From an uncultured Clostridia bacterium (GTDB lineage: Bacteria > Bacillota > Clostridia > TANB77 > CAG-465): 64,000 bases of DNA. Every line of letters starts with the position of its first letter. The stretch's first letter is position 1. The position numbers were made by a program, and so were the translations under genes. The stretch is taken from contig CANPWO010000003.1 of the NCBI GenBank assembly GCA_947584535.1, positions 3,871-67,870 of the forward strand. Reading direction: 5' to 3'. The notes beneath the pieces are model-generated. The model searched no databases, was not told the DNA's origin, and saw only the letters and a list, made by a program, of their open reading frames with translations. Positions 1-60,263 of this stretch are shown here, one piece after another.

Positions 1-1127
1 CTAAAGGAAGATGTGATAAAATTGGCTATGAAGATTCAAATTTAATTTATAAAAATCTAAATAATGGTAAGTCTATTAATGGAGAACTAGTTTCAATGCC
101 AAGTCATAGTGAGGCAATGAAAGTATTACTTGATAAGCTTATGGACGATGAGTATGGTGTTATAAAAGATGTAAATGATATATATGCTGTAGGACATAGA
201 TTAGTACATGGCGGAGAAAGATTCTCAAGTTCTGTACTAATTACTGATGAAGTATTAGATGAAGTAAAGGAATTATCACCATTAGCACCACTTCATAATC
301 CTGGTTGCATAATGGGTGTTGAAGCAATAAAAAGTATTGCACCACAGCTTAAAAATGTAGGTGTATTTGATACTGCGTTTCATCAAACAATACCTGATTT
401 TAACTATATTTATGCAATACCATACAAATATTATGAACAATATAAAATAAGAAGATATGGTTTCCATGGTACTTCATTTATGTACATTCTTGATAGACTA
501 TCTGTATTACTTAATAAGAAAAAAGAAGATATAAATGCGATTATTTGTCACTTAGGTGGTGGCGCAAGTGTTTGTGCAATAAAAGATGGTAAATCATATG
601 ATACATCTATGGGCTTTACACCACTTGAGGGGTTAGTTATGGAAAGTAGATGTGGAGATATTGATCCATCAATAGTAATTAGATTAATGAAACAAGAAAA
701 TTTATCAGTTGATGAAATTGATAGAATATTAAATAAGGAATCTGGAAGAATAGGACTTACAGGTATTGGTGATTTTAGATTAATGACTGAAGCTGCTGAT
801 AACGGAAATGAAAGAGCAATACTTGCAAGAAAAATACAAGCAAATAGAACTAAGAAATATGTTGGTTCATATCTTGCTGAACTTAACAGAGTAGATGCAA
901 TTGCATTTACAGGTGGTATACTTGAAAATAACTCTGAAGAAATAAGAATGACAATCTCTAACATGGAAAACCTTGGTATAATTCTTGATGAAGAAAGAAA
1001 TAGAAATGGTAGTGGTAAAGAATCATTAGTATCAAGTGATGATTCAAAAGTTAAATTATTTGTTATTCCAACAAATGAAGAATTACAAATTGCAAAACAA
1101 ACTTTGGAAGTGTTAGGAGCATGTTAA
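1..1127 (+). CDS. ackA: acetate kinase, 5' end cut by window edge
   Basis: ORF 96..1127 plus an open in-frame extension back to nt 3. Motifs VHGGERF, PLHNPG, VFDTAFHQT and RRYGFHGTS are typical of acetate kinases (ASKHA fold). Confidence 0.85.
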   Translation, partial: KGRCDKIGYEDSNLIYKNLNNGKSINGELVSMPSHSEAMKVLLDKLMDDEYGVIKDVNDIYAVGHRLVHGGERFSSSVLITDEVLDEVKELSPLAPLHNPGCIMGVEAIKSIAPQLKNVGVFDTAFHQTIPDFNYIYAIPYKYYEQYKIRRYGFHGTSFMYILDRLSVLLNKKKEDINAIICHLGGGASVCAIKDGKSYDTSMGFTPLEGLVMESRCGDIDPSIVIRLMKQENLSVDEIDRILNKESGRIGLTGIGDFRLMTEAADNGNERAILARKIQANRTKKYVGSYLAELNRVDAIAFTGGILENNSEEIRMTISNMENLGIILDEERNRNGSGKESLVSSDDSKVKLFVIPTNEELQIAKQTLEVLGAC

Positions 1128-2341
1128 AAAAAATACAACAAACATTATCTAAATATAACAAAAAAGTGTGGGTAATGTATAATGCCGAAAATCATGATAA
1201 ATATTTTTGTAAATTTTTCTCAAGAAATTTAAGTACACAAAGTATATGTATAATATCTACAGATGATATATATATATTAGTTTCAAGTTTGGATGCACAA
1301 AATGTAACCAAACTTAAATATAATAAGGAAAAAATACACATACTAATATATGAAAATTCTGCAAAATTACATGAGTATATTGAAGATGTAATTGCAAACT
1401 TGAAATTTCCAAATGAAATATGTTTGTCTTATTCTACAATGTCAGATAAAAGTACTGATATACTAACACATGGGGATTTTGTAATGCTTACAACATTACT
1501 TAAAGCGCCATATCAAAAATATTCAAAGAAAGTAAAGTTTTCTTCTGCAGAAAAAATAATATACGATTTAGTGGCTGAAAAAACAATTAAACAATTAGAA
1601 AGATTAAAATTTATTGCAAATATTACTAGTGAAATTCTTGATACGACTTTTGAAAAATTAAGAGTAGGTGTAACCGAGATACAAATTGTCAATTTAACTA
1701 CAAATATTACAAATGAAATAATGAAAAAGTATATTGGTAAAAATAATATACAAAGTTACGGTATGGCATGGGAAAATTGCCCAATTGTACTTACAGGTGA
1801 AAATTTCTTAAAAGGCGGTCATGCACTTCCATCCTCTAAAAAATTAAATAGAGGAGATACAGTATATTTTGATTTTGGAATAGAAGTAACATTTGATGAT
1901 AAAGAAACGTTATATTCTGATATGCAAAGAATGGGATATGTATTAAAGCAAAATGAAACATCAGCACCAAAAGATGTGCAAAAAGTTTTTGATACATTAG
2001 TAGAAGCAATAGAAGATGGAATTGATGAATTAAAGCCTGGGAAAAAAGGCTATGAAATTGATACGATAGTTAGAAATAAGATTACAAAAGCAGGGTATCC
2101 TGACTATAATCATGCAACAGGTCATCCAGTAGGGTTAAAAGTGCATGATATTGGTGCAATTATAACACTCAAAAATTCAAAAAGAGCAAGACTAGAACTT
2201 GTTGAAAATGGTGTTTATACATTAGAACCAAGAGTAAGTATATCAAATGGCGGTTCGATAGAAGAGATGATACAAGTAACTAAGTTTGGTGGATTGCCAC
2301 TTTGTAATACACAAAAGAAATTATATTTAATAAAAGAATAA
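1121..2341 (+). CDS. M24-family metallopeptidase (Xaa-Pro aminopeptidase/creatinase-like)
   Basis: 406-aa ORF. The C-terminal pita-bread signature HATGHPVGLKVHD and acidic metal ligands are present. Its start overlaps the ackA stop. Confidence 0.6.
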   Translation: MLKKIQQTLSKYNKKVWVMYNAENHDKYFCKFFSRNLSTQSICIISTDDIYILVSSLDAQNVTKLKYNKEKIHILIYENSAKLHEYIEDVIANLKFPNEICLSYSTMSDKSTDILTHGDFVMLTTLLKAPYQKYSKKVKFSSAEKIIYDLVAEKTIKQLERLKFIANITSEILDTTFEKLRVGVTEIQIVNLTTNITNEIMKKYIGKNNIQSYGMAWENCPIVLTGENFLKGGHALPSSKKLNRGDTVYFDFGIEVTFDDKETLYSDMQRMGYVLKQNETSAPKDVQKVFDTLVEAIEDGIDELKPGKKGYEIDTIVRNKITKAGYPDYNHATGHPVGLKVHDIGAIITLKNSKRARLELVENGVYTLEPRVSISNGGSIEEMIQVTKFGGLPLCNTQKKLYLIKE

Positions 2342-2357
2342 TAAGGGGGAAAAATAT

Positions 2358-2513
2358 ATGGAGCTTGCAAAGTTACTTGCTTTGATAGTTGGTGGTATTT
2401 GGGTATTAATACTACTTATATATCTAATTATGAAGGATATTAAAGATAGAAAATATAACCATGTACTAAAAACTAAAGAACAAATGCTAAGAGATGATAA
2501 GGATAAATTTTAA
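2358..2513 (+). CDS. small single-pass membrane protein (51 aa), below the ORF-track threshold
   Basis: An AAGGGGGA SD lies 7 nt before the ATG. Sequence MELAKLLALIVGGIWVLILLIYLIM is followed by a K/D-rich tail and a clean stop at 2511-2513. Confidence 0.45.
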   Translation: MELAKLLALIVGGIWVLILLIYLIMKDIKDRKYNHVLKTKEQMLRDDKDKF

Positions 2514-2527
2514 GAAAGGATGATAAT

Positions 2528-3914
2528 ATGAAATTAAGTTACAACAAGGAAGATATATACAGTAAGTTAGATGAAAAAGAATTAAAAGAAGTAGATGGCT
2601 TTTCAAAAGAGTATATTGAATTTTTAAATAAGGCAAAAACTGAATATGTTTGTGTTGAAGAATTTACAAAAATGCTTGATAAGAATAATTTTGTAGATAT
2701 TAATACAAAAAAAGAACTTAAAAAAGGCGATAGGGTATATTTTATTAATAAAGATAAAGCGATATTTGTTGCTGTGATTGGAAAAGATGATTTAAGTAAA
2801 GGTGTAAATATAATTGGAGCACATATTGATAGCCCAAGACTTGATTTAAAGCCAATGCCTATATATGAAAATAAAGATGTATGTTTGCTAAAAACTCAAT
2901 TTTATGGTGGTATAAAAAAATATCAATGGATGTCTATACCTCTTGCTATGTATGGTGTAATATATAATGAAAAAGGCGAAAAAATTAAAATAGCAATCGG
3001 TGATGATAAAGATGATTTATGCTTTACAATAGCAGATTTACTTCCTCACCTTGCTAAAGAACAAATGAAAGCTAACGCAAATGAGTTTATTGATCCTGAG
3101 AAGATGTCTATATTGTTTGGAAGCATTAAAGATAAAGAGGCAAAGAAAAACAAAGTTAAAGAGAATGTATTAAAAATTCTTAATAAGAAATATGGAATTA
3201 AAGAAATAGATTTTGCAAGAAGTGAAATATCATTTGTTCCTGCTTTTAGAGCTAAATATGTTGGTATTGACTCATCATTTATCGGTGGCTATGGGCAAGA
3301 TGATAGAGTTTGTGCATATACAACAATTAGAGCAATGCTTGATATTTTAAAAGAAGAAAAAGAAATAAAAAGAACAATGGTTGCAATGGTTGTTGATAAA
3401 GAAGAAATAGGAAGTATTGGAAATACATCAATGAGCACTGAAGCATTTGATTTATTTATAAACAAAATAATTGCAAAAAGTGGTAAAAAAGATATTGATA
3501 AATTAGAAGTGTATTATAACTCAAAAATGTTATCAGCAGATGTATCAGCAGGTGTTGATCCAGTATTTGAAGAAGTATCTGATGTACAAAATGGTAATAT
3601 GCTTGGATGCCGGTATTGCTGTTGAAAAATATACAGGTAGTGGCGGAAAATACAATGCATCTGATGCTAATGCTAAATATGTAAGTGAAGTTATGAATAT
3701 ATTTGAAAAAAATAATGTAGCATTCCAACTTGGAACTTTAGGTAAAATCGGAAAAGGAGGAGGCGGAACTATTGCATATATACTTGCTAATAAAGGTGTA
3801 GATGTAATAGATTGCGGTACACCAGTTCTTGCAATGCACTCTCCATTTGAAATAACTTCAAAATTTGATGTATATATGACATATCAAGCATATAAAGCAT
3901 TCTTTAAAAATTAG
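2528..3914 (+). pseudogene. M18-family aminopeptidase interrupted by a +1 frameshift around nt 3605-3612
   Basis: ORFs 2528..3625 and 3540..3914 are in frames +1 apart. Together they encode a roughly 460-aa M18 aminopeptidase (GAHIDSPRLDLKP ... AGIAVEKYTGSGGKYNASDANA ... GGGGTIAYILA). Confidence 0.7.
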
Positions 3915-6514: not shown

Positions 6515-6637
6515 AACCATAGTGATATATTTAGGAAGTGAAACTGATATAGAGAAAATGCACTAATTAGTAGCTTTTCAAACGCTTTCATATTCCTAAA
6601 ATATATTTTTGTATGTATATGGAGGTTAAATATATAA

Positions 6638-9600
6638 ATGAAAACAGGTATAAACAAAGTTGCAATGAAAGATAAAAAAGAAGGAATATCATTACTAGTA
6701 TTAATAATAACAATAATAGTAATGATAATACTAGCAGGAGCTGTAATCTTGTCAATAACAAATAATAATCCAGTATCAAAAGCAAATGAAACTAAGGTAA
6801 AAACAGATTTAACAGCATTAAAAGATGAGTATAATAATTTTTACTCAAGTGCCTTGTTTGATAATGTATCAAATACAAAAGGATACTATACAGACAAGAT
6901 GAATATAACAAAAGAAGGAAATATAATATATAAAGGAAAAGTAGTAAACGAGGGTGAAAATAACAGTCTCGCTTCTATCATGCCAAGTATAGTAGGAACA
7001 GAATACGAAGGGAAAGTATTTGTAGCAGATGGGAAGATATATATAGATAACAGAGATAAGTTTTTAAGTGAAGAACAACAAGAATGGGCAAAAGAAGTAG
7101 GAATAAATATATTAAATGAAGGAGAAGTACTGGTATTAAGTACAGAGGAAGTAAGCTTAAAGATAAGTCAAAAAGAAAGAATATATGCAACAGTATTGCC
7201 AGATGCAGATAGCCAAGTAGAATTTGAAATAGATGAGCAAACAAGAGCAAGAATAATAGAAGAAAAAGAAAATACAGTAGATATACAAGGAATAAGTGAT
7301 GGAATAGCAATACTAACAGCAAAAGTAACAGCAAAAGATGGAGTAGAGATAGAAAAGAAAGTAACAGTAAAAGTAAATGTAGGAGACTATATAAAAGTAG
7401 AAAGAATAACAATAGATCCAAGTGAAGTAGTACTTGGATTAGATGACGAACAACAGTTAAGAGCAATAATAACACCAGAGAGTGCAGATAACCAAGATGT
7501 ATCATGGGAAGTAGAAAGTCAAAATCCACAAGGCGCAGTAGAGTTATCACAAATAGGAGTAGTAACAGGAAGAGATGTAGGAGAAGCAAAGATAATAGCA
7601 AAGGGAGAATATGGAAACTTAACATCAGAAGTATGTAGTGTAAGTGTAATAGATAAAACAAAAATAACACTAGATAAGCAAACATTGCAATTAAGAAAAG
7701 GACAAAAAGATACATTAAAAGCAACAGTAGAAAATAAAAATGTAAGAGAAGGAACATTAACGTGGGAAACAAGTGATGATGCAAAAGTAGGAGTAGACCA
7801 GGATGGAAATATAACAGCAAAAGAAGTAGGAAGTGCAACAATAACAGCAAAATATCTAACTAAATCAGTAAGCTGTGTAGTAACAGTAGAAGAACCACTA
7901 AACTTAAAAGCAGAAGTAACAGAGGCAAGAGGAACAATAGTAATATTAAAAATAGATGCAGATACAACATATTCAACAATAGATAAAATACAAGTAAGAT
8001 ACAAAGAAGAAAATGCAACAGAATGGCAAACACAAGAAATAACAGTAAATGCAGAAACATATTCAAAAGATGATTATCAAATAACAGGATTAACAGCAGA
8101 AAAGAAATATGACATAGAAGTAATAGCACACTTAAAAGATGGCGGACAAGATAAAAAAGTAGTATTAACAGCAACACCAAGTAAAATACCAGTAGAAAGT
8201 GTAACAATATCACCAAAGCCATTACAAATATACCATGGAGATAAAACAAAAAAATTAGAAGCAAAAGTATTGCCACAAGATGCAACAAACAAAAAAGTAA
8301 GATGGGAAAGTAGTCAAAAAGATATAGCAACAATAGATGCAAATGGAACAATAACACCAGTAGAAGTAGGAACAACAATAATAACAGCTATATCAGAAGA
8401 TGATGAAACAAAAAGAGATACTTGTGAAGTAGAAATACAAGAACCAATAACATTTAGTGCAAGTGTAGTAAAAGAAAGTATAACATCAAGTATAATACCA
8501 TTAAATATATATGCAAAAACAGAATATGGTAATATAACAGAAATAAAAGTAAGGTATAAAGAAAAAACAGAAACAGAAGAAACAAAGTGGCAAGAAATAA
8601 CAATACCAGAAGCTGTAAATGAAACAGAATATACAAATGAAAAATACCAAATAACAAATTTAAAACCATATACAGAATATGAAATAGAAGTAAGTGTAAC
8701 AATATCAAGTGGAAGAAGTAAAAAAGAAACATTAGAAGTAACACAAACTAAAAAAATAGATGTATCAAGTATAACAATAGAACCAACAACTATACAGATA
8801 CCACTTGGAAATACAAAAGAAATACAAGCAACATTAACACCAAAAGATGCAACATTCCAAGGACTAACTTGGGAAAGTGAAAAAACAAATATAGCAACAA
8901 TAACAGGAGAAGAAACAGCAACAGATGGAGTAGCAAAAGCAACAATAATAGCAAAAGAGATAGGAAATACAACAGTAACAGTAAAATCAAAAGATAACGA
9001 ACAAGCAATAGCTGAGTGCCAAGTACAAGTAACAGAGCCAATATCATTAACAGCAAGTGTAGATACAGGTGGAATAACAGAAACAGTAATACCAGTAAAT
9101 ATACAAACATCAACAGAACATGGAACAATAAGTAAAATAGAAGTAATGTATAAGAAAAAAGATACAGAAGATGAATATACAACACAAAATGTAGAGATAC
9201 AACCAGACCAAACAGAATATAACGGAAAATATGAAATAAAAAACTTAGAGCCAGGAATAGAATATAGCATACAAGTAAAAGTAACAATAACAAGTGAACA
9301 AATAAAAGAACATAGTAAATCAATAAACGATTTAGAAGGAACAACTAAGAAAATAAATGTAGATAGTATAACTTTAGATAAGACAGAAGAAACAATAATA
9401 CTTGGAAGTATGGATTCATTACAACTAACAGCAACAATACAACCACCAGATGCAACAAACAAACTATTAACTTGGACAAGTAATGAACAAACAGTAGCAG
9501 AGGTAGACCAAACAGGAAAAGTAACAATAAAAGGAGTAGGAAGTGCAATAATAACAGTTACATCACAAGATAACGAAAGTGCAAAAGCAGAATGTAAAAT

Positions 9601-12600
9601 AACAGTAATAAATCCAGTAGAAGTAGAAGTAAATAAACCAGAATTATTACCTGGAATGACAGCAATAACGTTTGATGAAAATGGTCAACCACAAGCAACA
9701 GATGAAAATAATCCAGATTGGTATTCCTATGTAGACCAAGGAAATTATGGAACAGATGCAAAGTTAAGTCATTGGGCAAATGCGCAAACAGCAGATGGAA
9801 GCCAGTGGGTATGGATACCAAGGTATGCATACAAGATAGTAAGACAACCAAACGATTATACAACCGAAGGTGGAGAAATAGACATTAAATTTATGAGCGG
9901 AACAAGTAGTACAAAATATATAGACGAAAATGGAGACTTACAAGATTTACCAAAAGATTATATAGTACATCCAGCATTTACAGATGAAAGTAAAAAAGAA
10001 CCAGCGTATGCAAATGGTGGATGGAATGAAGAGTTAACAGGAATATGGGTAGCAAAATACGAAGCAAGTAAAGGAGAAGGAACAGAAAGTCAATCACAAC
10101 AAACATATCCAAAATTTGTACAAGGAGAAAATTCATATGTAGAAATCAATATAGGAGATATGTTTACATTATGCAAAAATTTAGCAACAGATACTAATAA
10201 CCCATACGGATTTTCTTCTTCAAAAGTAGATACACATCAAATGAAGAATAGTGAATGGGGAGCAGTAGCTTACCTAGCACAAAGTAAATATGGAAGAAAT
10301 GGAGTAGAGGTACAGCAAAACAAAGTTTATAATAATAGTAGTGGAGCAAAAACAGGATATGGAGAAAGCACATCATATCCATACAATACACCAGAAGGAC
10401 AGAAAGCATCAACAACAGGTAATCTATACGGTATATATGATATGAGTGGAGGAGCATATGAATATACAGCAGGATATCTAAATAATGGTAATAGATATTT
10501 AAAAAGCTATGGACAATCACTATTAGATGAAACAAATAATAAAGATAACAAAAAAGGAAGTGGAGCATCAACAAAATACGTATCAATATATAACGTAGGA
10601 GAAAGTGATACTCAAGAAAACAATTATAATGAAGAAACAAACAAAGCAAGAAAAGGAGAAGCAATATGGGAGACATCCACTTCTGGAAATAGTAGCAATG
10701 GAAGTTGGTTTGGCGACTATTCATATTTCTCTGACACGTTGAATCCGTTCTTGAGGCGTGGAGGCAGTTACTATAATGGCGGTACTCTCGCGGGTCTATT
10801 CGGCTTCGACTTACATGATGGCATTGTGTACAGTTACAGCGTTTTTCGTGCAGTGTTATGCAAAAAAATACCAGTAACAAGTATTAAGCTAGATAGAACA
10901 GAAGAAACTGTGTTTATAGAAGAAGGAAAAACAATACAACTTACAGCAACAGTATTACCAGAGAATGCATCAAATAAAGAAGTAACATGGACAACAAATA
11001 ATGAGCAAGTAGCAACAGTAGAAGGTAATGGATTAAATGCAACAGTAACAATAAAAGGAGTAGGTCAAACAAAAATAACAGTAACATCAAAAGAAAATAG
11101 TAATGTAAGTGCTTCATGTATAATAACAGTAATAAATCCAGTAGCAAAAATAGGAAGTGAATATTACGATACACTTCAAGAAGCATTTGATGCAAGTTCA
11201 ACAAACTCAAATACATATTCAGATATACAAGTATTAAAAGATATAACAAATAAAACAGCAACACTAAGTAATAACAAATACGCAAAACTAAATTTAGGAG
11301 CACATACAATAACAAATGACCAAGGAGATAAAGCAACAATAACAAATGAAGGATATATGCAAATAGTAGGAGGAGGAAGTTCAACTATATCAAGTACAGT
11401 TGGAAATGCAATAAAAAATATAAATACATTAACAATAAACACAAGCGGAACAATAACATCAAATCAAGATGCAATAGATAATACAAAAACATTAACAGTA
11501 ACAAAAGGAACAATAACATCAACAGGAAGTGATAGTAATAATAGTCATGGAATAAATAATAGTTCAACGCAAGGAAATGTAAATATAACAGGAGGAAAAA
11601 TTGAAGGACGTGACGGAATAAGAAATAGTGGAACATTAACAATTGCAGGAGGAGTTATAAATTCAACTACAGATGATGCAGTAGAGTTTGTAAATGGAAC
11701 AATAGACATAACAGATGGAGAAGTAACAGGAACTAATGGAATATATAATTCAAATGGAGGAACAGCAACAAACAAAGTATTAACAATAGGAAAAGATAAG
11801 GATTCAGTAAATATAACTAACCCAAAAATAACAGTAACAAATATAGCAGTATATAATGGAACTGAAACATTTACATCAAACTTTTATGATGGAGCAGTAA
11901 CAGGAAATGTACAATTTTATAAACAAGATGAAGTAAATATACCAAAAAGATATGAGATAGTAGTAAATGGAAATACCGCAATATTACAAAAACCAGTAGT
12001 ATATGGAACAAATGGAAATCAAGAAGAAGGAACAGGCAAAGTAAATGCACCAGAGATACTTGAAGGAATGAAGGCAATAAAATTTGCTGAAGATGGAAGT
12101 GGAAAGTCAGAAGAAACAACAACAGATGACCCAGCTTGGTATGCGTACAAAGAAAGCAAACAAGAATTTGGAACAGATAATACAACAAGTAGATGGGCAA
12201 ATGCAGAAACAGAAGATGGAAGCCAGTGGGTATGGATACCAAGGTATGCATACAAGATAGTAAAAGAGCCAGAATATACAGGAAGTGGAAGTTCGCAAAA
12301 AACAACCGCAGGTGGAGAGATAGATATAATATTCTTAAAAGGAACAAGTAATAAGTATGAAGACGAAAATGGAGATGAACAAGAAATACCGAAAGATTAT
12401 ATTGTACATCCAGCATTTAGAGATGAAACAGACACACAATTTGCAAATGGTGGATGGGATAGTGAATTAACAGGAATATGGGTATCAAAATACGAAGCAG
12501 GAAAAGGAGGAACTGAAATAGAAAGTACATCAGGAAAAGCATATCCAAAATTTGTACCAGGACGAACTTCTTATGGAAGTTATGGAAGTCTTAAAATAGG

Positions 12601-13303
12601 AGATATATTCACATTATGCAAAAATCTAAACCAAAGTGGTAATCCATACGGATTTTCTTCTTCAACAGTAGACACACATCAAATGAAGAATAGTGAATGG
12701 GGAGCTTGTGTCTATCTTGCACAAAGTAAATATGGAAGAAATGGAGTAGAGGTAACGCAAAACAAAAAAAATGGTAATAATAGTTTACCTCCAGAAACGG
12801 GATATGGAGCAAGCACATCAGCAACATACAATACACAAAGTGGTCAATTAGCATCAACAACAGGAAACATATACGGAATATATGATATGAGTGGAGGAAC
12901 AATGGAATATACAGCAGGATATCTAAAAGGTGGTACTAGTTATAGTAGTTTAACAACATCCGGACAATCACTAGTAGACGAAACAAATAAAGATGGAGAA
13001 AAGAAATCAACGAAATACGTATCTGTATACGAAGGTAGTAGTTCAAGCTATAGTACAAATTATAACAATGCAAAAAACAGTAAAAGAAAAGGAGAAGCAA
13101 TATGGGAGACATCTAAAAGAGGAGATGGCTATACAAGTTGGTTTGGCGACACTTCATATTTTTCTGAACCGACGTATCCATTCTTGTTGCGTGGAGGTTA
13201 TTCCAGCGAGAGTGGTACTAATGCGGGACTATTCTACTTTAACGGCGGCCTTGGCAATGTGGGCAGTTCCTACGGTTTTCGTGCAGTGTCGGTCCCACTT
13301 TAA
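6638..13303 (+). CDS. giant (2221 aa) multidomain cell-surface protein: N-terminal hydrophobic anchor, 7 Big_2 Ig-like domains, 3 FN3-like domains, a parallel beta-helix-like segment and two FGE-sulfatase-like (SUMF1-fold) modules; no LPXTG
   Basis: Single open frame with GGAGG SD. Big_2 repeats (e.g. ITIDPSEVVLGLDDEQQLRAIITPESADNQDVSWE...). FN3-like repeats (EPLNLKAEV...KYDIEVIAHL). FGE motifs WVWIPRYAYKI, NSEWGAVAYLAQSKYGRNG, YGIYDMSGGAYEYTAGY, RGGS...FRAV occur twice. Confidence 0.9.
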   Translation: MKTGINKVAMKDKKEGISLLVLIITIIVMIILAGAVILSITNNNPVSKANETKVKTDLTALKDEYNNFYSSALFDNVSNTKGYYTDKMNITKEGNIIYKGKVVNEGENNSLASIMPSIVGTEYEGKVFVADGKIYIDNRDKFLSEEQQEWAKEVGINILNEGEVLVLSTEEVSLKISQKERIYATVLPDADSQVEFEIDEQTRARIIEEKENTVDIQGISDGIAILTAKVTAKDGVEIEKKVTVKVNVGDYIKVERITIDPSEVVLGLDDEQQLRAIITPESADNQDVSWEVESQNPQGAVELSQIGVVTGRDVGEAKIIAKGEYGNLTSEVCSVSVIDKTKITLDKQTLQLRKGQKDTLKATVENKNVREGTLTWETSDDAKVGVDQDGNITAKEVGSATITAKYLTKSVSCVVTVEEPLNLKAEVTEARGTIVILKIDADTTYSTIDKIQVRYKEENATEWQTQEITVNAETYSKDDYQITGLTAEKKYDIEVIAHLKDGGQDKKVVLTATPSKIPVESVTISPKPLQIYHGDKTKKLEAKVLPQDATNKKVRWESSQKDIATIDANGTITPVEVGTTIITAISEDDETKRDTCEVEIQEPITFSASVVKESITSSIIPLNIYAKTEYGNITEIKVRYKEKTETEETKWQEITIPEAVNETEYTNEKYQITNLKPYTEYEIEVSVTISSGRSKKETLEVTQTKKIDVSSITIEPTTIQIPLGNTKEIQATLTPKDATFQGLTWESEKTNIATITGEETATDGVAKATIIAKEIGNTTVTVKSKDNEQAIAECQVQVTEPISLTASVDTGGITETVIPVNIQTSTEHGTISKIEVMYKKKDTEDEYTTQNVEIQPDQTEYNGKYEIKNLEPGIEYSIQVKVTITSEQIKEHSKSINDLEGTTKKINVDSITLDKTEETIILGSMDSLQLTATIQPPDATNKLLTWTSNEQTVAEVDQTGKVTIKGVGSAIITVTSQDNESAKAECKITVINPVEVEVNKPELLPGMTAITFDENGQPQATDENNPDWYSYVDQGNYGTDAKLSHWANAQTADGSQWVWIPRYAYKIVRQPNDYTTEGGEIDIKFMSGTSSTKYIDENGDLQDLPKDYIVHPAFTDESKKEPAYANGGWNEELTGIWVAKYEASKGEGTESQSQQTYPKFVQGENSYVEINIGDMFTLCKNLATDTNNPYGFSSSKVDTHQMKNSEWGAVAYLAQSKYGRNGVEVQQNKVYNNSSGAKTGYGESTSYPYNTPEGQKASTTGNLYGIYDMSGGAYEYTAGYLNNGNRYLKSYGQSLLDETNNKDNKKGSGASTKYVSIYNVGESDTQENNYNEETNKARKGEAIWETSTSGNSSNGSWFGDYSYFSDTLNPFLRRGGSYYNGGTLAGLFGFDLHDGIVYSYSVFRAVLCKKIPVTSIKLDRTEETVFIEEGKTIQLTATVLPENASNKEVTWTTNNEQVATVEGNGLNATVTIKGVGQTKITVTSKENSNVSASCIITVINPVAKIGSEYYDTLQEAFDASSTNSNTYSDIQVLKDITNKTATLSNNKYAKLNLGAHTITNDQGDKATITNEGYMQIVGGGSSTISSTVGNAIKNINTLTINTSGTITSNQDAIDNTKTLTVTKGTITSTGSDSNNSHGINNSSTQGNVNITGGKIEGRDGIRNSGTLTIAGGVINSTTDDAVEFVNGTIDITDGEVTGTNGIYNSNGGTATNKVLTIGKDKDSVNITNPKITVTNIAVYNGTETFTSNFYDGAVTGNVQFYKQDEVNIPKRYEIVVNGNTAILQKPVVYGTNGNQEEGTGKVNAPEILEGMKAIKFAEDGSGKSEETTTDDPAWYAYKESKQEFGTDNTTSRWANAETEDGSQWVWIPRYAYKIVKEPEYTGSGSSQKTTAGGEIDIIFLKGTSNKYEDENGDEQEIPKDYIVHPAFRDETDTQFANGGWDSELTGIWVSKYEAGKGGTEIESTSGKAYPKFVPGRTSYGSYGSLKIGDIFTLCKNLNQSGNPYGFSSSTVDTHQMKNSEWGACVYLAQSKYGRNGVEVTQNKKNGNNSLPPETGYGASTSATYNTQSGQLASTTGNIYGIYDMSGGTMEYTAGYLKGGTSYSSLTTSGQSLVDETNKDGEKKSTKYVSVYEGSSSSYSTNYNNAKNSKRKGEAIWETSKRGDGYTSWFGDTSYFSEPTYPFLLRGGYSSESGTNAGLFYFNGGLGNVGSSYGFRAVSVPL
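9608..10866 (+). repeat. intragenic repeat unit 1 (FGE-sulfatase-like module, about 420 codons)
   Basis: Its protein is roughly 60-70% identical to unit 2. It contains a 49-bp stretch (9794-9842) identical to 12215-12263, and near-identical stretches at 10203-10260 and 12645-12700. Confidence 0.8.
12037..13300 (+). repeat. intragenic repeat unit 2 (FGE-sulfatase-like module)
   Basis: Paralogous to 9608..10866 and in frame with it; the offset between the 49-bp cores is 2421 bp. Confidence 0.8.
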
Positions 13304-13418
13304 AATGTGGCACTGATACACTGAACACTTTTTTGTAGATAAACAGTATTAGTTATAATACAAATATATATTAATATTAACATTGAATGCTAATGAATAT
13401 TACTCATATACACATATA

Positions 13419-13455
13419 GGCAAAGTTTATACTATATTATAGTATAAGCTTTGTC
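13419..13455 (+). terminator. long near-perfect palindrome, probable terminator of the giant gene
   Basis: GGCAAAGTTTATACTATA-T-TATAGTATAAGCTTTGTC with one mismatch, followed by ATTTATTAT. Confidence 0.5.
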
Positions 13456-13529: not shown

Positions 13530-13558
13530 TTGACATATAAGCTATTTTAAAGTATAAT
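13530..13558 (+). promoter_or_regulatory. sigma-A promoter TTGACA-17-TATAAT (perfect consensus) for the gat operon
   Basis: -35 at 13530-13535 and -10 at 13553-13558. AAAGGAGGG SD at 13582-13590. Confidence 0.6.
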
Positions 13559-13595
13559 TATTGTTATGATTAAATATTAAAAAGGAGGGTTTTTG

Positions 13596-13883
13596 ATGAG
13601 TGTTTCAAAAGAAGAAGTATTGCATATAGCATCACTTTCTAGACTTAACTTAACAGAGCAAGAACTAGAAAAATATACTAATGACTTATCAAATATTGTA
13701 GATTATGCAAATGAACTTTCAAAAATAGATATAGAAGGTGTTAAACCAACAGCACATATTTTAGATATAAAAAATGTATTTAGAAAAGATAATGTAGAAA
13801 GTTCATATGATAGAGAAAGAATATTACAAAATGCACCAACTAAAGCAGCTGGGTGTATAACTGTACCAAAAGTTGTAGAATAG
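13596..13883 (+). CDS. gatC: Asp/Glu-tRNA(Asn/Gln) amidotransferase subunit C
   Basis: 96-aa ORF with GatC-like LSRLNLTEQELEKYTNDLSNIVDYANELSKIDIEGVKPTAH. ATG at 13596 is preferred over the in-frame TTG at 13593. Confidence 0.9.
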   Translation: MSVSKEEVLHIASLSRLNLTEQELEKYTNDLSNIVDYANELSKIDIEGVKPTAHILDIKNVFRKDNVESSYDRERILQNAPTKAAGCITVPKVVE

Positions 13884-17095: not shown

Positions 17096-18534
17096 TGAGA
17101 GAAGATTATGAAGTTGTAATTGGACTTGAAGTTCACGCAGAACTTTCTACAAATACCAAAATATATTGTAATTGTACTACAAAGTTTGGAGCAGATCCAA
17201 ATACACATTGTTGCCCAATTTGTACAGGAATGCCAGGTACTTTGCCAGTACTTAACGAAAAAGTAGTAGAATATGCAATAAAAATGGGACTTGCAACAAA
17301 TTGTGAAATAGCTAAATTTTCTAAGCAAGATAGAAAAAATTATTTTTATCCTGATTTACCAAAAGCATATCAGGTATCACAATATGACCTTCCACTTTGT
17401 GAAAGAGGACATATTGATGTAATGCTAGAAGATGGAGAAAAGAAAAGAATAGGTATAACTAGAATACATATCGAAGAAGATGCAGGAAAATTAATACATG
17501 ATGCATATACAGGGGATACTTTAGTAGATATGAATAGATGCGCTGTACCATTAATTGAAATTGTATCTGAGCCTGATATTAGAAGTGCTAAGGAAGCAGT
17601 AGCATATATGCAAACATTAAAGTCAATTCTTGAATATCTTGAAATATGTGACTGTAAAATGCAAGAAGGATCACTTAGATGTGATGTAAATCTATCTGTT
17701 AGAAAGAAAGGGCAAACAGAATTTGGAACAAGAACAGAAACTAAGAATTTAAATTCTTTTAAAGCAATAGAAAGAGCTATAGAATTTGAAACAGATAGAC
17801 AAATAGAAGAACTAGAAAATGGTGGTACAATATATCAAGAGACAAGAAGATTTGATGATGCAAAAGGTATTGGATATGCAATGCGTTCTAAAGAAGATGC
17901 ACATGACTACAGATATTTCCCAGAGCCTGACCTTGCACCAATTGTAATGAGCGACGAATATGTACAAAATTTAAAAGATAATCTTCCTGAAATGCCTCAT
18001 ATTAAAAAAGAAAGATATATGAAGGAATTTGAACTTAGTGAATATGATGCAAAACATTTAACAGATTCAAAGTATACAGCAAAGTTTTTTGAAAATACAG
18101 TTAAGCTATGTGGCAATGCGAAAGCTGTTGCAAACTGGATAATGAGTGATTTTGCTAAAATGTTAAACGAGTCAGAAATAGAAATACAAGATAGTAAAGT
18201 TACAGAAGAAAATCTAGCTTCTTTAATTAAATTAATTGATTCAGGAAAGATAAGTTCTGCAATAGCTAAAAAAGTGTTTATAGATATGTTTAATACTGGA
18301 GAAGATGCAAATAAAATAGTAGAACAAAAAGGATTAATACAAATTTCTGATGAAGGTGCAATTAAAGAAGTAGTTGAAAAAATAGTAGAAGCTAATCCAA
18401 AATCTGTTGAAGATTATCATAATGGAAAAGATAAAGCTATTGGCTTCTTAGTTGGTCAAATAATGAGAGAAACAAAAGGAAAAGCTAATCCTCAAATTGT
18501 TAACAAGTTATTAAAAGAAATACTAGATAAATAG
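17095..18534 (+). CDS. gatB: Asp/Glu-tRNA amidotransferase subunit B
   Basis: MREDYEVVIGLEVHAEL start typical of GatB. The ATG overlaps the proS stop (TAATG). The ORF-track start 17083 is probably an upstream extension. Confidence 0.93.
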   Translation: MREDYEVVIGLEVHAELSTNTKIYCNCTTKFGADPNTHCCPICTGMPGTLPVLNEKVVEYAIKMGLATNCEIAKFSKQDRKNYFYPDLPKAYQVSQYDLPLCERGHIDVMLEDGEKKRIGITRIHIEEDAGKLIHDAYTGDTLVDMNRCAVPLIEIVSEPDIRSAKEAVAYMQTLKSILEYLEICDCKMQEGSLRCDVNLSVRKKGQTEFGTRTETKNLNSFKAIERAIEFETDRQIEELENGGTIYQETRRFDDAKGIGYAMRSKEDAHDYRYFPEPDLAPIVMSDEYVQNLKDNLPEMPHIKKERYMKEFELSEYDAKHLTDSKYTAKFFENTVKLCGNAKAVANWIMSDFAKMLNESEIEIQDSKVTEENLASLIKLIDSGKISSAIAKKVFIDMFNTGEDANKIVEQKGLIQISDEGAIKEVVEKIVEANPKSVEDYHNGKDKAIGFLVGQIMRETKGKANPQIVNKLLKEILDK

Positions 18535-19125: not shown

Positions 19126-20172
19126 ATGGATAATCAACAAAAAATAAGGATACCGCTAATTGTACTTGTTGGTATAGTTCTTGCATTAATACTTATAACA
19201 TTTTTAGTAATAAAAACTGTTCAAAATATTTCAAGTAATAAAAATATAGATATAAGTAAAAATGATGCACCTCTTGTAATAGATGAAAATAATGATGATG
19301 ATTTAATTGAAGCAAATAATTTAATAGATGAGCAATTAACTGAAAATGAAGAAGATAAAAAAGAAGAAAACGTAGATGAAAATGCAAAAGATAAATTACA
19401 AGATTCTACATCTATTGCAACTTCTAATACTAATTCAAAAGTATCTAGTGTATCTAATAATAAAAATAACAGTAGTAATAATAACAATAATAATAATAGT
19501 AGCACTAACACAAATGATAATAAACCTGATGTTGTTCCTGATAATAGTTCACAAGAAGATAAAAATGAAAAAGTATTATATGATTTATATTCTAAAGTAA
19601 GTATCGGAGATTATGTAGATTATCCAGTTTCATATTCTAATGTTAGTATAAATGGTAAAAAAGCAAGTCTTACTGGCTGGAGAGTACTTAGTAAATCAAA
19701 TGGTACAATTAGTTTAATAAGTGCAGGTGTACCAGAAAGTATTTATCTTCAAGGTATAAGCGGGACTTCAAGTAATGTATTTAATAGTAAAATTAACAAA
19801 TATTTAAATGGTAATTATGCAACTAATGTTCATGTATTAACAATAGAAGAACTAAAACAATTTGTTGGTAACATAAATTTAGATAAGAACCATTCAGTAC
19901 CTACATATACTTCAATTCCACGTTCAAATAAGTATTACAATTTAATAGTTACCCCTGTTGGATATTGGTTATATAATATGATAAACGAAACAGGAAGTAA
20001 ATATAGATTTTATATACATCAAAATGGAATAATAAATAATATATATATGGGCTTTGAAGATAGCAGTTCATCATACAACGCTACTTATGGTATAAGACCA
20101 ATTGTTACACTAAAATATGGCATAAAAACTACTGGAAAGAATAATAATGGTGTATGGAATATAACATTATAG
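19126..20172 (+). CDS. hypothetical secreted/membrane-anchored protein with an acidic region and a poly-Asn/Ser linker
   Basis: 348 aa with an N-terminal TM. NNKNNSSNNNNNNNSSTNTND low-complexity tract at 19440-19520. C-terminal domain of about 200 aa is unrecognised. Confidence 0.6.
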   Translation: MDNQQKIRIPLIVLVGIVLALILITFLVIKTVQNISSNKNIDISKNDAPLVIDENNDDDLIEANNLIDEQLTENEEDKKEENVDENAKDKLQDSTSIATSNTNSKVSSVSNNKNNSSNNNNNNNSSTNTNDNKPDVVPDNSSQEDKNEKVLYDLYSKVSIGDYVDYPVSYSNVSINGKKASLTGWRVLSKSNGTISLISAGVPESIYLQGISGTSSNVFNSKINKYLNGNYATNVHVLTIEELKQFVGNINLDKNHSVPTYTSIPRSNKYYNLIVTPVGYWLYNMINETGSKYRFYIHQNGIINNIYMGFEDSSSSYNATYGIRPIVTLKYGIKTTGKNNNGVWNITL

Positions 20173-22607: not shown

Positions 22608-23225
22608 TTAAATAAAATTTAGACTTATAATTTTTCCAATGAGTGTTAAAAATAATATACTACATAGGAAAAACACAAATGATAATATACTAACATGTAA
22701 TGTATCTAATATATTTACTTTTTGAATATAATTGTATTTTATAACACTATTTTCTATGTTATCATAACTGTTTATTCTACCTATTTCTTTAAAATTTATC
22801 TTTATAGTTCCATCTATATCTTCATAACATATATTTATAAGTAAATAGCAAAATGAGTTTATAATTATAGCTATTGCAATGAACCCTATAGTTATTAATA
22901 ATAATGCAATTAGATTAAATATGTAATAGTTATTTTTAATAAAGAAAATAAAAAACACATCTATAATTGATAAATTCAATATATTTTTAGTTACTAAATA
23001 CCAAATTAAAAATAATAACAAATTTGAGAGTACGCTTATTATCGAAGGAATTAATAATACTTTATTTTGGTAACTGTGTTTTAACACACAAAACATAGAT
23101 AATTTAACAGTTTCTATTTTTAATATAACAAGGAATATTACAAGTAAGATAATTAATACTAAATTTACAATAAACAAAAAATCACATCCAATTATAATAT
23201 GTATATGATTTATATATTCTAACAA
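22608..23225 (-). CDS. hypothetical polytopic membrane protein (205 aa)
   Basis: Long ORF in an AT-rich background with several hydrophobic segments. No family recognised. Confidence 0.45.
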   Translation of the reverse strand: MLEYINHIHIIIGCDFLFIVNLVLIILLVIFLVILKIETVKLSMFCVLKHSYQNKVLLIPSIISVLSNLLLFLIWYLVTKNILNLSIIDVFFIFFIKNNYYIFNLIALLLITIGFIAIAIIINSFCYLLINICYEDIDGTIKINFKEIGRINSYDNIENSVIKYNYIQKVNILDTLHVSILSFVFFLCSILFLTLIGKIISLNFI

Positions 23226-27746: not shown

Positions 27747-29306
27747 ATGTTAGGAATTTATTTAATTGAACTGGGCGTATTTTTAATTATTTTATTAATA
27801 TTAAAACTTAGAGAAAAAAGCAAAGTTAAAGAAAATGGTATAGTTATAATGGACGGGAACGTATCTTTTAAGGATCATTTAAAAACAAATAAAAAATTGT
27901 ATGTTATATTAATTGTTCTATTTGTTTGTTTAATTATCTGTCAGTATCTATTTGAAATACCGCAAATGACTTTAGAAAAAACAAATATAGAAGCTAAAAG
28001 TAATGAAGATATTGTAATTCCATATACAGTATATCATTTTAATAATATAACTGATGAAGTAACAGTAGATAAAGGAAGTATAGATACACAAAAAGTAGGT
28101 GTATATAATGTAAAATATAAAGTTAAAACTTTATTTGGCACATATAATAAAGATTTCAAGATTAATGTAGTTGATACACTTGCACCTGATATAATACTAG
28201 AAGGAGGAGAAGATTATAAATTATCGTATCTAAAAGAATATACTGAACCTGGAGTAAAGGCTATTGATTTAAATGAAGGTGATTTAAGCAGTAATATTAA
28301 ATCTGAAAGAGAGGATATTAGTGATACAGAATTTAATATAAAATATACAGTAGAAGATAGTTTTAGTAATAAGGCAGAAAAAATTAGACATGTTACATTA
28401 ATAGATGATATACCACCTGTTATAACATTAAATGGTGAAGAAAACACTATAATAAATGTAGGACAAGCCTATACTGAAAAAGGTGCAAAGGCAAACGATG
28501 CAAAAGATGGAGATGTTTCAAGTAATATAGAAATTAAAGGAAATGTTGATACTTCTAAAGCAGGAGAGTATAGTATAAAATATACAGTAAAAGATAGTAA
28601 AGGTAATGAGGCAACTAAAATTCGTGTTGTAACAGTAGTAAAAAAAGAGGCTACAAATAATAAAAATAGTGGTAAAAAAGGAGTAATTTATTTAACATTT
28701 GATGATGGACCAAGTACTAATATTACACCTAAAATATTAGATATACTAAAAAGAAAAGGAATTAAGGCTACTTTCTTTATATTAAATTATGATAATTCAA
28801 AAGAGTATATTGTAAAAAGAGAGGCAAATGAAGGACATACTATTGCAATACACGGTTATTCACATGACTACAAAACTATATATAAATCAGAAGAAGCATT
28901 TATGAATAATATAGTAAAGTTAAGAGAGAAGATAAAAAAATCAACTGGATATGACTCAACAATAATAAGATTTCCTGGAGGAAGTTCAAATACTGTTAGT
29001 AAATTTAATCCGGGAATAATGACTAAATTAACAAATAAAGTACTTGCAAATGGATATAGATATTTTGATTGGAATGTTGACTCAAATGATGCAGGTGGAG
29101 CAAAAAATTCAAATGTTGTATATAACAATGTAGTAAATAATTTAAATAAAAATAGAGCAAATGTAGTATTAATGCATGATTTTTCAGGAAATAACAAAAC
29201 ACTTAACGCACTTGAAAGTATTATAAATTATGGAATTAATAATGGGTATACTTTTGAAAAAATAACTACAAGTACAGCTATGGTTACACATAATGTAAAC
29301 AATTAA
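27747..29306 (+). CDS. polysaccharide deacetylase (NodB-homology) with an N-terminal TM and Ig-like domains
   Basis: TFDDGP motif, HGYSH and RFPGGS motifs of the CE4 deacetylase family. Confidence 0.8.
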   Translation: MLGIYLIELGVFLIILLILKLREKSKVKENGIVIMDGNVSFKDHLKTNKKLYVILIVLFVCLIICQYLFEIPQMTLEKTNIEAKSNEDIVIPYTVYHFNNITDEVTVDKGSIDTQKVGVYNVKYKVKTLFGTYNKDFKINVVDTLAPDIILEGGEDYKLSYLKEYTEPGVKAIDLNEGDLSSNIKSEREDISDTEFNIKYTVEDSFSNKAEKIRHVTLIDDIPPVITLNGEENTIINVGQAYTEKGAKANDAKDGDVSSNIEIKGNVDTSKAGEYSIKYTVKDSKGNEATKIRVVTVVKKEATNNKNSGKKGVIYLTFDDGPSTNITPKILDILKRKGIKATFFILNYDNSKEYIVKREANEGHTIAIHGYSHDYKTIYKSEEAFMNNIVKLREKIKKSTGYDSTIIRFPGGSSNTVSKFNPGIMTKLTNKVLANGYRYFDWNVDSNDAGGAKNSNVVYNNVVNNLNKNRANVVLMHDFSGNNKTLNALESIINYGINNGYTFEKITTSTAMVTHNVNN

Positions 29307-44128: not shown

Positions 44129-45770
44129 ATGAGTATAAAAGTTACATTTGATGATATGCGTACAATTGAAGTACCATATAAAACAAGTGCAGTTGATGCT
44201 GTAAAAATGGTTGAAAGTAATTTAAAGGATATTTTAGCTTTTAAAGTAAATAACGAAATTAGAACTTATGATTATAAACTTGTTAAAGATAGTCATATTG
44301 AATTTATAAAATTTAATAGTGCAGATGGTTATAGAATATATTCTAGAACTTTAAAGATGGTTTTGCACATGGCTCTTACATCTATATTTTCAAATACAAA
44401 AGTAGAATTTTTATCAACTATTGATAATGACCAATATTTTGTATTAAAAGGAATTGAGTTAACTGAGGAAAAGGTAAAGGCAGTAAAGGAAAAAATGCTT
44501 GATTTTATTAAAAAAGATTTGCCTATAACAAGAAAATCTGTACCATTAGAAGAAGCTACAGGTCTATATATTGCATCTAACTCAGAGGATAAGCTTAAAA
44601 ATATAAATAATAGATTAAAATCATATATCACAATGTATTTTTGTGATGGTATGTATAATAACTTTTATGGTGTACTTGCTCCAAGCACAGGTTACATTAC
44701 AAAATTTGATTTAATTAAGTATAGAGACGGGGCACTTCTTATGATACCTGATAAAGACATGAATATAAAAAAAGAGATTAAAGATAATAGACTTTATGAT
44801 ACTTTTATAAGCTTTAATGAATTAGATGATATTATAGGAATAGATAATGTAGGCGATTTAAATGATGCAATTTTAAAAAATAAGATTAATGATGTAATAC
44901 AAGTTTCAGAAGCTATACATGAAAGAAATATGGTAGAACTTGTACTTGACATTGAAAAAAAGAAAAATGTAAAAATGATTTTAATTGCTGGTCCTTCAAG
45001 TTCACGGTAAAACAACGTTTGCCCAAAAACTTGGCATTCAGCTTAGACTTACTGGTTTTAACCCTATTACAATAACAATGGATAATTATTTTAAAGAAAG
45101 AAAAGATACACCAATTGGAGAAGATGGAAAGTATAATTTTGAATGTGTAGAAGCTTTAGATATTAATTTATTTAATACACAAATTAAAGATTTAGTTGAT
45201 GGAAAAAGTGTTGAGCTTCCTGAATTTGATTTTGTTAATGGTACCAAAAAATTTAATGGGAAAATGCTTACATTATCTGATAGGGATATATTAATTGTAG
45301 AGGGAATTCACGCTTTAAATCCAATACTTACAGAATTTACTCCTGATGAAAATAAATATAAAATATATATTGCACCAATTGCAACACTTAATATTGATGG
45401 TTATACTAAGATTTCATCTTCAGATACAAGATTACTTAGAAGAATGGTAAGAGATTATAGTACAAGAGGTAATAGTGTAGAAAAGACTTTTGAATTATGG
45501 AATAATGTTAAAAGAGGAGAAGAACAATATATCTTCCCATTTGTAAATTCAGTTGATTATATATATAATTCAAGTCTTATATACGAACCTAGTGTAATGA
45601 AGATATTTGCTCAGCCACTTCTTTTGCAAGTTGATAATACAAGTCAGTATTATTCTGAAAGTAGAAGACTGTATGAATATCTAAATAACTTTTTACCTAT
45701 GGAAACAGGTAATATACCTATTAATTCAATTATAAGAGAATTTATCGGTAATGGATGTTTTTATCGTTAA
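44129..45770 (+). pseudogene. TGS-domain/uridine-kinase family protein disrupted by a single-base insertion at about nt 45005
   Basis: ORF 44129..45010 ends in IAGPSSSR* and ORF 44985..45770 begins HGKTTFAQKL. Removing the C in TCACGGT restores the P-loop GPSSSGKTTFAQKL. Confidence 0.65.
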
Positions 45771-51590: not shown

Positions 51591-51625
51591 AATATTTTAA
51601 TATTTAAAGGAGAAAAAATTGGTAT

Positions 51626-60160: not shown

Positions 60161-60263
60161 AGTTATTCCTCCTTAAAAAATATTACATTTAAATTATAAC
60201 ACAATTTACATAAAATGTCAATGCTTAAAAAGGTAGTTTAATTTATAAACTACCTTTTATATA

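Follow-up and report, generated by a model that had tools for sequence, protein, structure and literature searches.

How does a very long surface protein of a gut bacterium come to carry two heads that look as if their binding surfaces had been written by a mutagenic retroelement, when no such element lies nearby? We analyzed a 64,000-nucleotide stretch of an uncultured Clostridia bacterium of the order TANB77 (assembly GCA_947584535.1, contig CANPWO010000003.1, positions 3,871 to 67,870, forward strand), referred to here as the window; coordinates are those of the window unless a locus is named. One gene in it encodes a giant protein of 2221 aa, which the preliminary description, made from the sequence alone, had read as a stalked surface protein with two non-catalytic modules of the FGE-sulfatase fold (modules A and B below). 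Our analysis suggests that the giant is probably a double-headed variable adhesin of the type diversified by diversity-generating retroelements (DGRs), orphaned from its retroelement, with heads that are most likely frozen relics. We place it in this class because fold, homology and compositional footprint all point to a DGR target, and we call it orphaned because neither a cognate template repeat (TR) nor a reverse transcriptase (RT) was found in the available sequence.

The two modules, each about 410 aa, were ~60% identical in a self-comparison, with block-by-block values of 54-72%. Pfam domains were mapped at gathering scores, first with the full-length protein and also segment by segment. 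The FGE-sulfatase family PF03781 stayed below its cutoff of 23.3 bits with the whole protein (18.5 bits, E 0.0016) and with module B alone (17.4 bits), and module A alone gave no Pfam match; PvdO gave an E of 6e-4 by sequence. The fold proposed earlier was nevertheless borne out by structure prediction. The AlphaFold 2 model of module B, built from an alignment of 49 homologues (pLDDT 89.9, pTM 0.93), gave as its best PDB match in Foldseek TaqVP (5vf4), the DGR variable protein of Thermus aquaticus (E 2e-6), followed in order by PorK, TvpA of Treponema denticola (2y3c, E 8e-4), PvdO, EgtB and FGE. A profile of the module family also found TaqVP from sequence (E 0.0015), with SUMF2 and PvdO next. 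The family is large: module B had more than 5252 homologues at E<=1e-5, nearly all of them lacking any Pfam domain, mostly 480-600 aa long (typically about 555 aa) and derived from uncultured gut Clostridia.

The absence of the catalytic Cys pair, also stated in the preliminary description, was confirmed. No Cys is present in aa 2025-2221, the segment that matches the FGE catalytic pair, and the sole Cys near the end of module A (Cys1408) follows the FRAV motif. We rejected an enzyme of the FGE or EgtB kind on account of the missing Cys pair and the sub-threshold Pfam score. The modules share their fold class and the motifs …YG.YDM.GN.WE… and RGG…FR with FGE/SUMF1 (PF03781), PvdO, PorK and the C-domain of EgtB; they differ from FGE/SUMF1 in that the Cys pair is absent, its place is taken by a variable segment and the Pfam score is below cutoff. 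Modules A and B are non-catalytic members of the FGE/C-type-lectin fold and most plausibly bind ligands. The earlier notion of lectin-like binding modules held as far as the non-catalytic fold is concerned, but not as to a generic FGE-like lectin: judged by sequence and modeled fold, both are the variable-protein module of DGRs.

Some members of the module family are genuine DGR targets. At locus L001, the 3' end of the homologue P0106 (39% identity over 100% of the module query) is repeated behind the gene over 160 nt; this repeat is the TR, and 11 of the 12 mismatches between variable region (VR) and TR have an A in the TR; the twelfth lies at the 3' edge of the repeat. Past the TR lies a structured RNA identified as Rfam RT-14 above the gathering score, and beyond the RNA a convergent operon encodes a MutS_I-domain protein, bAvd and RVT_1. 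The closest relative among 78 genome loci, L005 (50% identity), has a VR/TR pair with an A in the TR at 19/19 mismatches, and its contig stops short of any RT. At L059, a VR/TR pair that shows 20 adenine-type mismatches is accompanied by Avd and RT; L023 has RT and Avd, and at L082 the start of a TR stands at the contig end. The TRs of L001, L005 and L059 encode …RGG-N-Y-N-N-G-S-N-AG-xF-xF-N-N-x-N-G-N-A-N-x-N-N-GFR.V. No DGR part was found in the flanks of the remaining ~75 of ~80 family loci. Many genomes hold several paralogues of the module family, at times four to five in tandem (L020, L072).

Three side observations were made at these loci. A conserved structured RNA lies just downstream of the TRs (12040-12189 of L001, with similar sequence in L005, L023 and L059), and the RT-14-type RNA region shares the motif ATACCAAAGAAACATAATTCCTTTC…GATAAACACAT (L005/L090 form). 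A small protein consisting of MutS domain I only stands beside Avd and RT in all three cassettes (13648-14079 of L001, ~3144-3536 of L023 and ~4345-4602 of L059). The tandem paralogues of L020 and L072 have no DGR part in their flanks, and two of the L072 copies share 100% identical 3' ends.

The last ~50 residues of each module of the giant are encoded by a VR-like segment (segments A and B, Table 1) that carries the footprint of adenine mutagenesis. We measured composition in 30-codon windows along the gene, and the two segments were its extremes in low A, high GC and third-position C. The adenine fraction was 0.167 in segment B, the minimum of the gene, and 0.178 in segment A (gene mean 0.476, standard deviation 0.076); GC reached 0.53 in segment B, the maximum, and 0.52 in segment A (gene mean 0.32). 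The fraction of C at codon position 3 was 0.37 in segment B and 0.40 in segment A, compared with a gene mean of 0.063. In the loop of module B, 10 of 11 codons are NNY. The rise in third-position C is not due to the choice of amino acids, because T-ending synonyms are available in a genome of 27-32% GC; AAC codons whose adenines have been mutagenized leave such an excess.

The positions of variation agree with this footprint. Both modules are collinear with the peptides encoded by the TRs of L001, L005 and L059; the framework (SWF, RGG, AGLF, F and FRAV) is kept, and the variation falls on the positions of Asn codons in the TRs. Nine modules of related giants gave the same picture, with an invariant framework and interleaved hypervariable positions. 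The footprint (A-poor, with NNC or NNT at the Asn-codon positions of the template) is thus present in both heads. We also compared VR composition across the family. VRs linked to a DGR averaged 0.15 for A and 0.40 for third-position C, orphan VRs 0.22 for both, and the two segments of the window had 0.19-0.20 for A and 0.27-0.33 for third-position C. They stand between the two groups, nearer the active ones.

A retroelement that could have written these segments was not found. Short-word BLASTN of the 64-kb window with either segment returned only the paralogous module and no TR, and tblastn for RT, Avd and MutS_I in the window was negative. No RT-associated RNA reached the Rfam gathering score in the window, where only a tRNA was detected, and the locus of the giant had no Rfam match at all. 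None of the family loci examined, L090 included, held a TR for either segment, and a degenerate-pattern scan of metagenome and viral contig collections recovered neither a TR nor strain variants of the segments.

The 3' flank of the gene resembles part of a DGR locus. The 3' end of module B and its flank are homologous to the VR of L005 (…GTC.CACTTTAA, then a hairpin, a ~37-nt element and a terminator); at the point where L005 enters its TR, the window enters the presumed gatC. The ~37-nt element has no match in Rfam. It recurs nearly unchanged behind the gene of the giant P0124 at the non-syntenic locus L083 (~17625-17700), and a related form is located between the VR and the TR of the L005 DGR (~11375-11420).

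Related DNA of the lineage was informative as well. A look-up through the neighboring M24 peptidase recovered three short, independent metagenome contigs that are 100% identical to window 1-2705 and carry housekeeping genes upstream, and two of these three metagenomes also hold a fragmented paralogous giant (L090, L091), broken into 1428 + 51 + 386 + 403 aa. At 6660-6966 of L090, the last module leads without interruption into a TR-like sequence followed by an intact RT-14 RNA (Rfam, 51.5 bits), past which an IS200-type Y1 transposase is found; no RT lies within 4.8 kb. The locus represents a DGR in decay or, alternatively, a collapse of VR and TR during assembly. We rejected its TR-like end as a template for the VRs of the window, owing to too many non-adenine mismatches. 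Clearly, giants of this kind were once coupled to DGRs in the lineage, and the heads in the window look like products of a DGR process that has since been uncoupled.

From these results we propose how the protein might be built and how its heads might have arisen. The N-terminal hydrophobic helix would hold the adhesin in the membrane, acting as a signal anchor or perhaps being the helix of a pilin-like subunit, and the stalk of Big_2 and fn3 domains would project the remainder outward, presenting a beta-helix of the carbohydrate-binding type and two predicted ligand-binding heads. The binding surface of each head would be its last ~50 residues (…SWFGD…RGG…AGLF.F…FRAV). Both ~150-nt segments would have been written by mutagenic retrohoming, in which a cDNA is made from a TR rich in Asn codons and the adenines are randomized; such randomization of template adenines could explain why adenine-poor, NNC-rich segments occur in an A-rich gene of 32% GC. 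The two specificities would then most likely be frozen relics, with continued rewriting in trans by a DGR at another site in the genome a less likely alternative. Our results show the domain map, the fold, the homology to verified DGR targets, the compositional signature and the lack of a cassette in 64 kb; we infer that the protein is displayed on the surface and binds ligands, and that retrohoming once took place at both sites.

Several results weigh against this proposal. No cognate TR was found, and retrohoming at the two sites is argued for by composition and homology; DGR parts were within reach at only ~5 of the ~80 family loci examined. Segments A and B differ from each other and from their relatives at synonymous and non-A positions, and therefore had no single shared template. 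The hairpin behind the VR is degenerate in the window (z 0.33), compared with a strong one in L005 (z -4.0). Finally, the near-identical giants P0124 and P0241 have 14 residue differences, all in the first ~240 aa, so that their VRs are identical and give no sign of ongoing diversification.

The domain mapping agreed with a modular surface protein. Pfam recognized six Big_2 domains (39-67 bits; aa ~250-342, 340-420, 512-600, 700-800, 900-997 and 1406-1505) and three fn3 domains (27.8-29.8 bits against a cutoff of 25; aa ~418-515, 598-702 and 798-900), which gives the stalk the order unassigned Ig-like, Big_2, Big_2, fn3, Big_2, fn3, Big_2, fn3, Big_2. The fn3 count of the preliminary description was thereby matched, and its Big_2 count (seven and another one) was too high by one or two, because aa 160-255 have an Ig-like appearance but are not recognized by Pfam. 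The Asn/Thr/Gly-rich region at aa 1503-1800, which had been called beta-helix-like, matched PF14262 (Cthe_2159) with 35.1 bits against a cutoff of 25.8. A single hydrophobic segment was found at aa ~17-44 (KD19 maximum 3.35), as described before, with no second transmembrane segment. The lack of a wall anchor was likewise upheld: a search of the giant for LPXTG-like motifs returned nothing but a chance 'IPVTS', and there is no hydrophobic segment at the C-terminus. The one N-terminal hydrophobic helix and the adhesin-type Big_2, fn3 and beta-helix domains support the earlier view of the giant as a modular protein that is predicted to be displayed on the surface.

The N-terminal domain raises the possibility, compatible with an orphaned DGR-type adhesin, that the giant is a modular type IV-pilin-like subunit, cut after Gly16 by a prepilin-type peptidase and carried on a type IV-like filament, most likely at its tip, which would put the variable heads at the end of a pilus. 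The leader (MKTGINKVAMKDKKEG, then ISLLVLIITIIVMIILAGAV) has the layout of a class III signal: it is short and basic, ends in Gly16 (K-K-E-G/I-S-L-L-V-L-I-I-T-I-I-V-M-I-I-L-A-G, the slash marking the end of the leader) and is followed by ~20 hydrophobic residues. A corresponding motif (G/I-T-L-I-A-L-V-I-T-I-I) is carried by 79 of 120 members of the module family, with the Gly at median position 10, and by 0 of 111 unrelated Big_2 giants, of which those inspected start with signal-peptide-like N-termini. The prepilin-type layout lacking Phe at +1 and Glu at +5, noted for the giant in the preliminary description, proved to be a property of the family: among the 79 motif-bearing members the +1 residue is Ile in 76 and Phe1 is absent, and the +5 residue is Ala, Val, Ser or Thr (with a single Ile, Met and Gly) and never Glu. 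Tip pseudopilins that lack Glu5 exist, GspK being one. About one quarter of the module family has an ordinary hydrophobic N-terminus instead of the motif, suggesting that the N-terminus may serve only as an anchor.

The domain itself also recurs widely. An exhaustive HMMER search, for which aa 1-175 served as query, brought up 2317 representative clusters at E<=1e-3 and 166 at E<=1e-10. The matches are always N-terminal, in proteins of 75 to 4340 aa, many of which are free-standing proteins of 130-175 aa (around 140 aa) with a pilin-like leader (G/I-S/T-L, never Glu5), so that the whole 165-aa domain occurs on its own. The AlphaFold 2 model of the domain (pLDDT 80) consists of a long N-terminal helix kinked at NNNP (helices 17-42 and 45-77) and a small beta domain of four to five strands, a layout that may speak for a pilin. 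The only PDB sequence match was geopilin (E 0.12), in register over 60 residues. GspG, PpdD and ComGC matched repeatedly with E 3e-6 to 0.1, far below cutoffs, and one family member is annotated as a PulG pseudopilin by JGI. None of the pilin families N_methyl (PF07963, E 0.04), TIGR02532, GspG and ComGC reached its cutoff, and Foldseek with the model returned no pilin (best E 0.68). The preliminary description had proposed to look for a prepilin peptidase and pilus genes elsewhere; in the available sequence the search was negative: the 64-kb window has no gene for a prepilin peptidase, assembly ATPase or platform protein, and the free-standing homologue P0293 has none next to it.

The pilin interpretation has some precedent in modular pilins that carry adhesive modules at the C-terminus (PMC8179133) and in the tip adhesins, diversified by DGRs, that have been reported for type V pili of Bacteroides (bioRxiv 10.1101/2024.11.15.621889). 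We nonetheless consider it doubtful, though a possibility to be taken seriously, in view of the missing Phe1 and Glu5, the sub-threshold family and structure searches, the lack of pilus genes in the window or beside the free-standing homologue and the quarter of the family with ordinary N-termini. On the earlier preference for a type II membrane anchor over a pilin-like adhesin, the evidence points both ways: the absence of a significant pilin family and of pilus genes in the window agrees with it, and the sharing of the domain with many free-standing, pilin-sized proteins favors a pilin-like protein more than had been assumed. We would go only tentatively, and against the odds, to the wider proposal that the N-terminal domain defines an undescribed pilin-like class in low-GC gut Clostridia, in which the ~555-aa members and the giant would be modular tip subunits that place DGR-written hypervariable lectin heads on a type IV-like filament. 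An unverified lead is a Tad-type pilus cluster with unannotated pilin-like proteins of 143-237 aa, reported for the uncultured order TANB77 (PMC11680825).

Of the readings that compete with frozen heads, the strongest is that they are still diversified in trans by a DGR outside the window (on the ~11 kb of its contig that lie beyond, on a different contig or in a prophage) through one or two remote templates. Remote targets are a recognized blind spot of DGR surveys (PMC8144416), the VR composition in the window is nearer to DGR-linked VRs than that of the average orphan, the 3' end of the VR of module B resembles the L005 VR, and a paralogous giant with an intact RT-14 RNA and TR-like sequence occurs in samples with window-identical DNA. 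However, no locus examined, L090 among them, gave a TR-like match to the segments, the pattern scans of metagenome and viral contigs were empty, the hairpin behind the VR is degenerate, the VRs of P0124 and P0241 are identical and the TR-like element of L090 has no RT within 4.8 kb. We regard ongoing rewriting as unlikely, and since no retroelement was found in 64 kb, the heads of the orphaned adhesin are probably frozen, or else rewritten from afar.

A DGR history might also be denied altogether, with the modules taken as ordinary non-catalytic FGE-like lectins and the composition of their 3' ends as a result of selection for loops rich in Gly, Tyr, Ser and Phe. The ~75 of 80 family loci with no DGR nearby and the non-catalytic FGE-fold proteins PvdO and PorK among the structural matches would fit this explanation. 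We find it highly improbable: the six-fold rise in third-position C goes beyond amino-acid selection, given the T-ending synonyms, the footprint is strongest in verified VRs, the closest genome relative (L005) is a verified target and the positions that vary are those at which related TRs have Asn codons.

The relatives of the giant bear on whether its double-headed architecture is genuine. Eight close relatives (P0122-P0129) share 56-72% identity in the best local alignment, covering ~45% of the query; their first ~250 aa are almost identical, and they vary in the number of Big_2/fn3 pairs, while their beta-helices number one to three and their lectin modules one or two. Module A ends in …FRAVLCKK like the C-termini of the relatives (…FRAVCVSK, then stop) and continues into the Big_2 linker 'KKI.VT', which suggests that a cassette of Big_2, beta-helix and module was appended to what used to be the C-terminus. 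The idea that the assembly joined paralogous giants into a chimera, for which one could cite the several paralogues with shared repeats in the same samples and the junction between module A and Big_2 (…FRAVLCKK/IPVTS…) that resembles an old C-terminus joined to a linker, is barely credible given that P0122, an independent protein of 2574 aa from a metagenome-assembled genome, also has two modules, that the DNA similarity of the paralogues (74-84%) is too low to mislead an assembler, and that the frame is intact over 6.7 kb with only a few bases shared at the junction.

The features of the gene and its flanks are collected in Table 1. The giant open reading frame (ORF) described earlier is real: it begins with ATG behind a GGAGG, is unbroken over its 6.7 kb and encodes a product identical to a protein on record for an NCBI contig (P0121). 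The window has ~27% GC and strongly one-directional housekeeping genes, among them ackA, the M24 and M18 peptidase genes, gatCAB, proS, recG, uvrB, rho and argS. With such neighbors the giant gene is chromosomal and does not belong to a phage or plasmid, and a prophage tail fiber was rejected because the neighbors are all housekeeping genes. The small ORF at 13593-13883, ahead of gatA, is presumably gatC.

Table 1. Positions of the features of the giant gene and its flanks in the window
Feature	Position	Strand	Basis or remark
Whole ORF	6638..13303	+	2221 aa plus stop, ATG start
Shine-Dalgarno-like GGAGG	6621..6625	+	12 nt upstream of ATG, by sequence reading
N-terminal pilin-like domain, aa 1-165	6638..7132	+	HMMER family, AlphaFold 2 model
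Stalk, aa 166-996	7133..9625	+	Pfam by segment, internal repeats, whole-protein Pfam
Module A, aa 997-1406	9626..10855	+	Beta-rich subdomain, then C-type-lectin/FGE-fold domain; predicted DGR variable-protein type
Variable-region-like segment A, aa 1358-1406 (FGDYSYF...FRAV)	10709..10855	+	Composition, collinearity with TR peptides
Big_2, aa 1409-1502	10862..11143	+	Pfam, E 2.8e-16
Beta-helix, Cthe_2159-type carbohydrate-binding domain, aa 1503-1800	11144..12037	+	PF14262, E 1.2e-8
Module B, aa 1801-2221	12038..13300	+	Beta-rich subdomain, then C-type-lectin/FGE-fold domain; predicted DGR variable-protein type
Variable-region-like segment B, aa 2169-2221 (FGDTSYF...FRAVSVPL)	13142..13300	+	Composition, NNY codons, likeness to L005
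Conserved ~37-nt element (ATTGAATGCTAATGAATATTACTCATATACACATATA) and terminator hairpin with 17-bp stem	13382..13455	+	Terminator scan and fold, z -4.4
Perfect sigma-70 consensus promoter (TTGACA-17-TATAAT)	13530-13558		Before small ORF 13593-13883

Other observations in the window concern its remaining genes. All three metagenome contigs stop exactly at position 2705, inside the start of the M18 aminopeptidase gene, and this gene is split into the overlapping ORFs 2528-3625 and 3540-3914; the split and the 2705 junction may reflect a frameshift or a strain-variable junction. A second surface protein is encoded at 27747-29306, with a polysaccharide deacetylase domain fused to three Bact_surface_Ig-like domains. 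At the thresholds used, Pfam matched nothing in several ORFs of 200-420 aa (19126-20172, 22608-23225, 44129-45010, 48282-48911, 50892-52327 and 59486-61538).

Comparison with known systems separates what is established from what is particular to the giant. TvpA and TaqVP (PMC6328139), the DGR variable proteins among the best structural matches, likewise have a C-terminal variable segment ending in G-F-R-x-V. They are proteins of 280-385 aa with one VR beside a retroelement, whereas the giant, with its 2221 aa, combines two modules, of which one is internal, with an Ig-like stalk and a beta-helix; neither a TR nor an RT lies within 64 kb of sequence, and its identities to these proteins are just 8-14%. 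The membrane-anchored cellular DGR targets of Roux et al. 2021 (PMC8144416) share with it a transmembrane segment at the N-terminus, domains for adhesion or carbohydrate binding and a C-type-lectin VR at the C-terminus, but were defined by a VR adjoining an RT; the giant is orphaned. Genes with two VRs are rare (4 targets; PMC11661182), and so are targets annotated as GspG-type pilins. Modular type IV pilins such as PilB of Streptococcus sanguinis (PMC8179133) have, like the giant, a basic leader ending in Gly, a hydrophobic helix, a small N-domain and C-terminal adhesive modules; the giant differs from them by the lack of Phe1/Glu5, of a significant pilin family or structure match and of assembly genes in the window. 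The type V tip adhesins of Bacteroides (bioRxiv 10.1101/2024.11.15.621889) embody the same concept, a hypervariable lectin-fold head on a fiber-like appendage in a gut bacterium, in a different phylum, with another pilus type and anchoring; no DGR is linked to the giant. In the Cthe_2159 family (PF14262) the beta-helix is a free-standing protein, and in the giant it is an internal module between two heads. C-type-lectin-fold DGR proteins, membrane-anchored targets with adhesion domains (PMC8144416) and rare two-VR genes (PMC11661182) are therefore already established. What sets the giant apart is the combination of two heads, one of them internal, with a beta-helix, a 1000-residue stalk and a pilin-like N-domain, with no retroelement within 64 kb.

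Deliberate hypermutation of a binding surface is known from few places in bacteria, and DGR targets are among them. The locus described here shows that a single, very long stalk can bear two copies of the variable-lectin module, and that variable heads persist, footprint included, far from any retroelement. Surveys that demand a VR beside an RT overlook such genes; the A-poor, NNC-rich footprint at the 3' end offers a means of finding them and of roughly dating the loss of diversification. In gut Clostridia, variable heads usually come together with a conserved pilin-like domain at the N-terminus that lacks annotation. If this domain is a pilin, a widespread variable-tipped filament would exist in abundant uncultured gut bacteria, and if the pilin-like class proposed above is real, it would mirror, in Gram-positives, the type V pilus tips that DGRs diversify in Bacteroides, with few or remote retroelements serving many paralogous heads in each genome.

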